Source of the DNA: a virus
Taxonomy: Duplodnaviria > Heunggongvirae > Uroviricota > Caudoviricetes
IMG/VR virus record: IMGVR_UViG_2541047895_000008
Coordinates: 1-47,766 of that record
Strand: one strand, 5' to 3'
Length of the DNA: 47,766 nt
Under the pieces are notes generated by a model. It searched no databases, was not told the origin of the DNA, and was given only the letters and a program-made list of their open reading frames with translations. The first letter of the stretch is position 1. Every line of letters begins with the position of its first letter. Position numbers and translations under genes: made by a program. Positions 40,724-41,520 of this stretch are shown here, in pieces.

Positions 40724-40745
40724 ATCACCCTCACAATGTGAACTT

Positions 40746-40780
40746 TGAGTACACACTATAACAGAACTGACAGTACATTC
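40746..40780. promoter_or_regulatory. OR-like operator/promoter region between the cro-like and cI-like genes
   Basis: gAGTACAcactataacagaactgacAGTACAttc: two AGTACA half-sites in the 80-bp divergent intergenic region. Confidence 0.5.
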
Positions 40781-40802
40781 AAGAGCGAATATCATTGAAC
40801 TT

Positions 40803-41222
40803 ATGGTTCATGAAGATAAAGCGCGTAAAGAGTTCGCCAGTAGGCTTGCGCTAGCCTGTGAAAACGCTGGTTATGAACAACATGGAAGGCAGGCAGAAAT
40901 TGCCCGTCGAATGAAATTAACACCAAAAGCGGTTAGCAAATGGTTTAATGGCGAAACAATTCCTCGCCGGGAGAAATTAAGGGAATTAGCAACACTAATA
41001 GGAACAACACCAACCTATCTTTTGGGAGAGGATACAGAAGAAAGTGGACAGGTACGTTTCTATCAGGAGTTAAATCCAAGACAAAAAATCATCATTGACC
41101 TTCTGGACGAGCTCCCTGACAGTGAGACAGATGAACTTTTAAAAACTCTTGAAGAGAAAAAACAGAAGTACAATGCAATTTACGAAGAGTTAGCACGAAA
41201 GAAAAAACAAAAAGCCTCTTAA
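40803..41222 (+). CDS. CI-like repressor candidate (HTH only, no S24 peptidase domain)
   Basis: ..GRQAEIARRMKLTPKAVSKWFNGETIPRREKLRELATLIG.. XRE-type HTH with a C-terminal charged helix; divergent from the cro-like gene. Confidence 0.6.
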   Translation: MVHEDKARKEFASRLALACENAGYEQHGRQAEIARRMKLTPKAVSKWFNGETIPRREKLRELATLIGTTPTYLLGEDTEESGQVRFYQELNPRQKIIIDLLDELPDSETDELLKTLEEKKQKYNAIYEELARKKKQKAS

Positions 41223-41299
41223 AACCAGCATAAATCCGGTAGCGCCTTCCTCCGGGTTTGTGCTTCACTTTATCCCATCTCATTTTTTTACACACAAAA

Positions 41300-41341
41300 T
41301 GTACTAAAAGTACTTTACAATAATGAACGCAAAGTACATTA
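41300..41341. promoter_or_regulatory. OL-like operator cluster / early-left promoter region
   Basis: tGTACTaaaAGTACTttacaataatgaacgcaaAGTACAtta: same AGTAC half-sites as the OR-like region, upstream of the early-left ORFs. Confidence 0.5.
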
Positions 41342-41520
41342 TATACCTACCACCCACCCCGCCCCACAGAATGCAGGGCAATACTTCGAGTTACCAGGCA
41401 GTGGTCAGGGGTTAAGTAGCCAGCCCGAGGCGTAAGAACATGACGGCAGGGTTCAACTTTAATAACTATGCAGCAGGTTTTTGTTCCGCTACCCCGGCGT
41501 TAAGGGGAAATGAGGTCAAC

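Follow-up and report, generated by a model that had tools for sequence, protein, structure and literature searches.

The 47.8-kb stretch of DNA analysed here (IMG/VR record IMGVR_UViG_2541047895_000008, 47,766 nucleotides (nt), referred to in its entirety as the window) is a lambdoid prophage of Escherichia coli and a close relative of phage Tritos. Between positions 40047 and 41345 it carries the gene for a repressor of 139 amino acid (aa) residues, divergent from a cro-like gene that is followed by ydaT, together with five operator-like sites and three predicted promoters (Table 1). The original prediction had taken this region for an immunity switch, and the arrangement of cro, operators, repressor and promoters, which is that of phage HK022, bears this out; the HK022 type of the switch, the third operator over the start codon of the repressor gene, and YdaT and its site in the place of CII had not been recognised. 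In our assessment the region is quite probably a lambdoid immunity (lysis/lysogeny) switch of mosaic composition, in which an HK022-type core is combined with a DicA-type repressor tail while YdaT stands in for CII; such a switch would flip independently of the SOS response, either spontaneously or through a trans-acting factor, and would operate without N, Nun or put.

Operators, promoters and the divergent genes

The original prediction had pointed to AGTAC half-sites common to the two sides of the repressor gene, and the AGTACA motifs located in these two short regulatory stretches (four copies, at 40748, 40772, 41300 on the minus strand, and 41333) were found to belong to five 15-bp sites of the form TG(A/T)AC(T/C)-N3-(A/G)GT(A/T)CA, three of which lie between cro and the repressor gene (O1 to O3) and two at the leftward promoter PL (OLa and OLb). 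The hexamer shows no overall enrichment in the window (17 copies, 12 expected), and its copy at 41167, inside the repressor gene, was rejected as an operator because no full site surrounds it. Searching the entire window for GWACT-N3-AGTAC with at most one mismatch returned only 40740-52, 40764-76, 41301-13 and 41325-37. Employing a weight matrix trained on relatives only, namely the annotated operators of HK022 and HK75 and the sites of a Salmonella relative (L004), a Raoultella relative (L005) and a metagenomic phage (L007), the five sites ranked 1st, 2nd, 3rd, 4th and 6th among about 47,750 positions, with scores of 21.2, 19.1, 17.6, 16.8 and 11.9 bits; shuffled sequences reached a top score of 13.1 bits on average. 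The highest of these scores belongs to O3, the sequence of which is identical to HK022 oR3/oR1, while the lowest, that of OLb, does not exceed the shuffled mean, so that OLb is supported by its position and not by its score. The matrix scan revealed neither a third OL site nor further operator copies in the window, and a 13.2-bit match at 29257 was dismissed as being at chance level.

The positions of the sites, with centre-to-centre spacings of 24 bp (O1-O2), 33 bp (O2-O3) and 24 bp (OLa-OLb), reproduce those of HK022: O2 occupies the same place as oR2 (GGAACTGATAGTACA), OLa and OLb the places of the HK022 oL sites TGTACTATTGGTACT and TGAACTTTAAGTACA, and the PL region of the window (AGTACTTTACAATAATGAACGCAAAGTACATTAT) corresponds to the pL region of HK022 (GGTACTTTACATTAATGAACTTTAAGTACATCAT). 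O1 has counterparts in L004, L005, L007 and HK022, equally far from the repressor ATG. Sites at -63 and -39 from the ATG were identified upstream of the related repressors of Salmonella L004, Raoultella L005 and the metagenomic phages L007 and L008, and OL-like pairs 24 bp apart lie downstream in L004 and L005. In L007 and L008 (positions 3886-4708) the same two operators precede an S24-type relative of the repressor, the gene for which diverges from that of a Q-like antiterminator; genes for holin, lysis and sheath functions are its neighbours and the genome looks to be of the myovirus type, a context indicating that the HK022-type operator/helix-turn-helix (HTH) module is used outside lambdoid siphoviruses.

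A consensus scan detected promoters at the positions expected from an HK022-type layout. The -10 element of the PRM-like promoter ends 7 nt before the repressor ATG, with a predicted transcript start at about 40802/3, and a Shine-Dalgarno sequence is absent; on these two grounds the repressor mRNA is predicted to be leaderless, as is the cI mRNA of lambda, and it probably is. Beyond the repressor stop codon lies a stable hairpin, the tail of which (UCACUUUAU) is not U-rich, and which probably terminates the PRM transcript or insulates PL from it.

Over 73 aa, the product of the cro-like gene shares 60% of its residues with HK022 Cro (E = 1e-33). The alternative 108-aa reading of this gene from a start at 40795, as given in the Tritos record, is implausible since the two divergent genes would then be separated by just 7 bp. 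The YdaT protein shares 134 of 141 residues with PDB entry 3c4r and matches 8bt1, the YdaT of CP-933P, with E = 2.9e-79. YdaT has been described as the equivalent of CII (PMC8630535, PMC9986795), and its high-affinity site as TTGATT-N6-AATCAA (PMC9986795). A single perfect match to this sequence is present in the window, and its position at the end of the cro-like gene is that seen in CP-933P; by analogy, the site is expected to mark a PRE-like region.

Table 1. Positions of the switch components and of other features of the window
Feature	Positions	Strand	Description	Basis
ydaT, functional equivalent of cII	40047..40472	-		Pfam YdaT_toxin
YdaT operator, OM-type, TTGATTTTCATGAATCAA	40462..40479		cro stop / ydaT start	
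cro-like gene	40469..40723	-	84 aa	PGAP start
O1 TGAACTTTGAGTACA	40739..40753		at about +1 of PR-like promoter	motif scan, matrix
PR-like promoter	40755..40782	-	TTGAAT-16-TATAGT with TG	consensus scan; layout as HK022 pR annotation
O2 AGAACTGACAGTACA	40763..40777		PR spacer, overlaps PRM-like -35	motif scan, matrix
PRM-like promoter	40767..40795	+	CTGACA-17-TATCAT	consensus scan, 10/12 positions, best match of the region
O3 TGAACTTATGGTTCA	40796..40810		palindrome, centred on repressor ATG	matrix, HK022 match
Repressor gene	40803..41222	+	139 aa, WP_000233320.1	open reading frame (ORF)
Hairpin after repressor stop codon	41227..41264	+	15-bp stem, -19.2 kcal/mol	z = -4.45, 0/200 shuffles as stable
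OLa TGTACTAAAAGTACT	41300..41314		core palindrome GTACTAAAAGTAC	motif scan, matrix
PL-like promoter	41314..41342	+	TTTACA-17-CATTAT	consensus scan; homologous to HK022 pL region
OLb TGAACGCAAAGTACA	41324..41338		overlaps PL -10	motif scan, matrix (11.9 bits, weaker)
Hairpin ccccggcgttaagggg	41492..41507	+	4-bp stem, 8-nt loop, -7.8 kcal/mol	z = -0.66 vs shuffles
ydfA (DUF1391)	41521-41676	+		Pfam, PGAP
ydfB	41678-41806	+		PGAP
ydfC	41836-42054	+		PGAP
DicF small RNA (sRNA)	42396-42447	+		Rfam 76.7 bits
nanS-like (DUF6645) gene	28840-30689		frameshifted	PGAP
IS110-family transposase	36876-38114		nin region	PGAP
Integrase	45708-46758		frameshifted	PGAP

The repressor and its C-terminal module

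Pfam searches with the repressor matched HTH_3 (residues 29-73) and HTH_31 (residues 10-70) only, with no match to Peptidase_S24 (PF00717), and PHROGs and NCBIfam returned repressor families only; the earlier description of the protein as an HTH-only repressor lacking an S24 autopeptidase was in this way confirmed. Its layout comprises an HK022-CI-like HTH domain (aa 1 to approximately 77), a linker (78-88) and a DicA-type helical C-module (approximately 90-139). A tblastn search of phage records with the repressor retrieved the CI proteins of HK022 and HK75, and over residues 4-102 the identity of the repressor to HK022 CI is 47% (E = 6e-32). The nearest relatives of the N-terminal domain (62-72% identity over residues 1 to approximately 100) are proteins of 235-240 aa from Raoultella, Klebsiella and metagenomes which possess Peptidase_S24 (PF00717) and an Ala-Gly site, and their similarity to the repressor stops at about residue 102, just before the Ala-Gly site. 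The C-terminus, in turn, matched that of DicA when the tails alone were compared by BLASTP (E = 2e-8), whole-protein identity to DicA being 29% (E = 5e-15). The best NCBIfam model, 'transcriptional repressor DicA' (NF007257), aligned with residues 29-137 at 56.8 bits; as the cut-off of this model is 101, the repressor is regarded as a relative of DicA and not as its orthologue.

An exhaustive HMMER search with the repressor, tallied over the best 150 cluster representatives, yielded 34 short proteins (110-185 aa) in which the alignment runs through the C-terminus and 28 proteins of 200-262 aa in which it is restricted to the N-terminal domain. With three representatives (P0078, P0097 and P0108) the C-module alone is held in common, at 51-62% identity, while the N-terminal sequences differ, and the occurrence of the module on different N-terminal sequences indicates that the tail is mobile. 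The repressor is, on these alignments, a chimera of an HK022-CI-like DNA-binding domain and a DicA-type tail that replaces the S24 domain for self-cleavage and oligomerisation. In the mosaic the DicA-type tail goes together with the Qin ydfABC-dicF left operon described below, and YdaT represents a third module, of CP-933P/Rac type.

The AlphaFold2 model of the repressor (mean predicted local distance difference test score (pLDDT) 80.6) comprises a five-helix HTH domain at residues 2-73 (pLDDT about 90), the linker at low confidence, and a C-module made up of two helices, the first short (92-103) and the second long (106-138). Foldseek comparison of this model with the PDB gave generic XRE-HTH matches only (E > 1e-3); SinR/SinI, SPC32H Rep, DdrO and an arbitrium-phage repressor were considered as two-domain analogues, and these weak Foldseek matches were not used as evidence. 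A sequence search of the PDB retrieved only P22, 434 and generic HTH matches.

The corresponding protein of Tritos, annotated as CI, is 100% identical, and its expression in the lysogen was 24-fold over background (PMC9928086). A basic tail of the form ...K(K/R)xxKAS was observed to end DicA-type C-modules, both in the repressor (residues 130-139) and in representatives P0012, P0015, P0045, P0062, P0097 and P0108; this tail could be a degron, or could contact DNA or a partner. In the Salmonella relative L004 (positions 4553-5220) a HigB-toxin/HTH-antitoxin pair comes after the DicA-tailed repressor, an order that mirrors paaR2-paaA2-parE2 of CP-933P, and short repressors may repeatedly have toxin-antitoxin genes behind them.

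We tentatively suggest, while considering it doubtful, that the DicA-type C-module of about 50 aa serves as a portable regulatory handle onto which one inducer acting in trans docks, be it an antirepressor or a protease of the host. If this were true, many E. coli and Salmonella prophages of differing immunity would be co-controlled by a signal other than DNA damage, and Tritos-type phages, which are without Rem, LexA box, N and put, would offer a tractable model for finding that signal. Naturally occurring pairs, in which one DNA-binding domain and its operators go with either an S24 or a DicA-type tail, constitute a ready-made test of the swapping of induction logic.

Induction, antitermination and prophage context

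From the layout and from homologous systems the following mode of action may be proposed. Repressor bound at O1 and O2 would block PR, and hence cro, ydaT and replication, while repressor at OLa and OLb would block PL; O3, positioned over the start of the probably leaderless repressor mRNA, would provide autoregulation, and Cro would compete for operators O1-O3, OLa and OLb. During the establishment of lysogeny YdaT would switch on repressor synthesis from a PRE-like promoter. Since the repressor holds no S24 peptidase, it is not expected to be inactivated by RecA-stimulated self-cleavage. The switch may then flip spontaneously, with Cro driving a bistable circuit comparable to those of DicA/DicC and PaaR2/YdaS, both of which have been shown to be bistable switches, or alternatively may be flipped by a trans-acting antirepressor or protease that is not recognisably encoded in the prophage.

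Best supported is the reading of an SOS-unresponsive switch, flipping stochastically or via a factor encoded elsewhere. PaaR2, which is without a peptidase motif, has been described as unreactive to mitomycin C, and Tritos is released spontaneously (about 2.8e6 genomes/mL) and is absent from the prophages reported as induced by the SOS-inducing drugs ciprofloxacin or trimethoprim. The original prediction had suggested that an antirepressor may be needed for induction, and such a dedicated factor, encoded by the prophage or elsewhere in the genome and responding to a signal such as SOS, is a plausible if less likely explanation. The class provides the precedent: in the Gifsy/DicA/RacR group, inactivation of the short, non-cleavable repressor falls to a small antirepressor, as with GfoR of Gifsy, the target of GfoA and its relatives under LexA control (PMC3121763), and Rem is an antirepressor of DicA that derepresses dicBp 165-fold (PMC10448788). 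The DicA-type C-module, conserved at 51-62% identity across differing N-terminal domains, is also what would be expected of a surface for a common partner. Against this stands the outcome of searches that covered the window and Tritos and not the rest of the host genome: no homologue of K-12 Rem was detected by tblastn (E >= 0.4 or no match) and an antirepressor annotation is given neither by PGAP or PHROGs nor by the authors of the Tritos study; in the window the only CTGT-N8-ACAG match to a LexA box lies inside nleH, the best 20-mer consensus matches reach 13/20 and fall outside regulatory regions, and a credible LexA box was seen in Tritos no more than in the window. An ORF of 92 aa (34344-34619) that occupies the 'rem position', between hokD and the DUF968 gene, was considered as an immunity-specific partner and rejected, as it has no similarity to Rem, belongs to phrog_1212 of unassigned function, and is also carried, among others, by Gifsy-1/2, PY54 and mEp460_ev081, phages of different immunity types, the last with a DicA and a Rem of its own. 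An ImmA/IrrE protease was likewise discarded as a conserved partner, being found in Tritos (TRITO_41) only and absent from the window.

Removal of the repressor by a host protease (ClpXP or Lon), with the basic tail as degron and induction tracking cellular proteolysis or physiology instead of DNA damage, appears improbable. It would account for the sharing of the ...K(K/R)xxKAS end by many divergent DicA-type representatives, an end which we take to resemble known ClpX C-terminal signals. DicA itself, however, ends differently (...RTNKR), and the basic tail may equally contact DNA or be incidental, even if Ragunathan et al. proposed an 'inherent instability of DicA' and reported Rem-independent induction by heat and urea.

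The leftward transcript was examined for an antitermination system. The early-left operon (41521..42447) is of the Qin dicB type with the gene order of K-12, and the genes that come first after PL are ydfA, ydfB and ydfC rather than N. The earlier statement that no N gene follows OL holds, as tblastn of lambda N and HK022 Nun on the window gave a best E of 0.1 with no match in the early operons (E >= 1 for lambda N alone), and a motif scan of the PL operon (41340-42900) for Arg-rich N-termini, a noisy scan returning mostly off-frame ORFs, was negative. Downstream of DicF the place of dicB-ydfD is taken by a dicB that is truncated (42517-42600) and, after it, by kil of the Rac type (42627-42848), from which it follows that the cell-division-inhibitor cassette is itself mosaic.

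It was also proposed in the original prediction that the ccccggcgttaagggg hairpin could be a nut- or put-like element, and that the PL leader holds an antitermination device not recognised by the searches is, on balance, very improbable. A phage without N must still express its distal early genes; put RNA is employed by HK022, from which the operator module comes; and on the PR path a good intrinsic terminator (AACCCGCTTCGGCGGGTT with TTGTTTTTTC, 34718-34701 on the minus strand) stands between hokD and the Q gene in a hokD block that is 96% identical in Tritos, where the terminator is retained, so that the passage of PR transcription to Q is left unexplained by N, Nun or put. The evidence from the leader itself is to the contrary. 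Using 11 put sequences of viral contigs, a covariance model was built that recovered its positive controls, putL and putR of HK75, at 96.8 and 78.2 bits; its scores in the window did not exceed 13.9 bits, with no match in the early operons, and Rfam at a permissive threshold detected only DicF between 39900 and 42500. The leader (41346-41525) folds less stably than its shuffles (z = +1.75), a test that is weak either way because known put RNAs have likewise unremarkable z-scores. As for the hairpin, it lies in the 5' untranslated region of ydfA, 5 nt before the Shine-Dalgarno sequence, with a weak stem and without boxA, and it does not have the 5-bp stem and GNRA-like pentaloop of a boxB; K-12 Qin shares the block that contains it, beginning some 36 nt ahead of the ydfA ATG. 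Together with the negative N/Nun searches these observations largely refute an HK022-type put or a lambda-type nut, and the proposal for the hairpin was abandoned.

Turning to the prophage as a whole, the window is 99.975% identical to positions 1417980-1465745 of E. coli 2015C-4136CT1 (NZ_CP027550.1), where the prophage is flanked by nle effector genes and tRNA-Ser/mtfA. The type III effector genes nleH, nleC and nleB2 lie with tail genes at its left end, and the integrase gene lies beside tRNA-Ser/mtfA at its right end. Identity to Tritos, a plaque- and virion-forming phage (PMC9928086) of the Crohn's-associated E. coli strain LF82, amounts to 96.7% over a block of 4.26 kb (38345-42607) that includes the switch, and to 97-98% over the immunity module; around the switch the sharing is limited to the block from the DUF977 gene to dicF. 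The 2.6-kb immunity region was detected, at a coverage of at least 80%, in 259 of 5,426 complete E. coli genomes, so the module carried by the plaque-forming Tritos is also common in E. coli. The cargo (1-2406 and 8534-9061) consists of a frameshifted nleH, a fragment of nleC and an intact nleB2 at the tail-fibre end, with a phage-borne sodC further inside the prophage, and these genes point to an effector-carrying prophage of the type found in enteropathogenic or enterohaemorrhagic E. coli (EPEC/EHEC). Rfam identified the STnc100 sRNA, three tRNA genes and a hokD/sok toxin-antitoxin locus (30826-30998, 31772-32018 and 34787-35111); the position of the three tRNA genes upstream of Q-dependent late genes is the layout of Shiga toxin (Stx) phages, though stx is not present. 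The switch would thus control a prophage with type III effectors (nleB2, and damaged nleH and nleC), DicF and Kil, and the operator positions and the predicted lack of an SOS response would bear on the timing of expression of the effector genes and the phage.

A number of points weigh against the interpretation of the region as a mosaic, SOS-independent switch. According to PGAP the integrase, the nanS-like gene and nleH are frameshifted, and from the damaged integrase, the IS110 element in the nin region and the truncated dicB it follows that this copy of the prophage, in contrast to Tritos, is probably defective, so that the switch may not control a full lytic cycle here. For this protein we infer operator occupancy, the leaderless start and autoregulation, and the position of O2 over the predicted PRM -35 does not separate self-activation by the repressor from repression only. 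The induction result for Tritos is negative and concerns one set of conditions in one strain. Finally, antirepressors are small and diverse, and failure of homology searches does not show their absence.

Relation to known systems

The core of the switch is that of HK022 and HK75, with Cro (60%) and the N-terminal domain of CI (47%) related to the window proteins, 15-bp operators with TGAAC/TGTAC half-sites in common, and a near-identical recognition-helix region (TPKAVSKWFNGE in the window repressor, TPKAISKWFNGE in HK022 CI). Five potential repressor-binding sites are annotated in the HK022 record X16093 in the layout seen in the window: oR3 over the cI ATG, oR2 between the -35 and -10 elements of pR and oR1 after the -10, at spacings of 33 and 24 bp, and, on either side of the pL -35 (TTTACA), a pair of oL sites spaced by 24 bp. 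The differences lie in the remaining parts. The CI protein of HK022 (235 aa; X16093 cI) aligns with the window repressor over the N-terminal 100 or so residues only, and while an S24 domain is assigned to it from the aligned relatives of 235-240 aa (PF00717), the window repressor has the DicA-type tail; HK022 has putL, putR and Nun, none of which was found in the window, and it has cII where the window has ydaT. Cro, the N-terminal domain of the repressor and the operator layout are accordingly of HK022 type, whereas the S24 domain and put/Nun of that type are missing.

The resemblance to the DicA system of Qin concerns the other half of the repressor and the region beyond it. DicA (135 aa) is similarly short, unites an HTH domain with a homologous C-terminal helical module, has no Ala-Gly/S24 cleavage apparatus, is bistable with its Cro-like partner, and is encoded divergently from a Cro-like gene just upstream of the promoter of ydfA-ydfB-ydfC-dicF, as in the window. 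At 29% overall identity, however, the two repressors differ, the DNA-binding domain, operators and Cro of the window being of HK022 type and not of DicA/DicC type; the TGAAC-type operator is absent from the dicA-dicC region, and Qin has Rem, of which no homologue was found in the window. In length, single HTH domain, lack of S24 and DicA-like C-module the window repressor falls within the DicA/Gifsy class, while its NF007257 score remains below the cut-off. The Gifsy repressors GfoR, GfhR and GtgR, which have about 136 aa, stay uncleaved during induction and were grouped with DicA and RacR by Lemire et al. (PMC3121763), require a LexA-repressed antirepressor operon, whereas neither a LexA box nor an antirepressor was detected in the window.

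With the PaaR2/YdaS/YdaT system of CP-933P the window shares the same YdaT and the same OM site (TTGATT-N6-AATCAA) at the end of the cro-like gene, a homologue and junction site characteristic of the CP-933P/Rac type. In both systems a short, peptidase-free repressor is divergent from a Cro-like gene across less than 100 bp and a second repressed promoter lies downstream of the repressor, and leaderless translation, shown for paaR2, is predicted in the window; PaaR2 is likened to the window repressor here by description and not by direct sequence comparison. CP-933P differs in its operators, which are GTTTAGTAA-type repeats, and in that paaA2-parE2 follows its repressor, no such pair being present in the window. 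Non-cleavable short repressors, their antirepressors and the bistable DicA and PaaR2 switches are known already and no new principle is found here; the interest of the present switch is modest, and lies in the natural swap of S24 and DicA-type tails on one DNA-binding domain and in the inducer of a functional phage that carries it.

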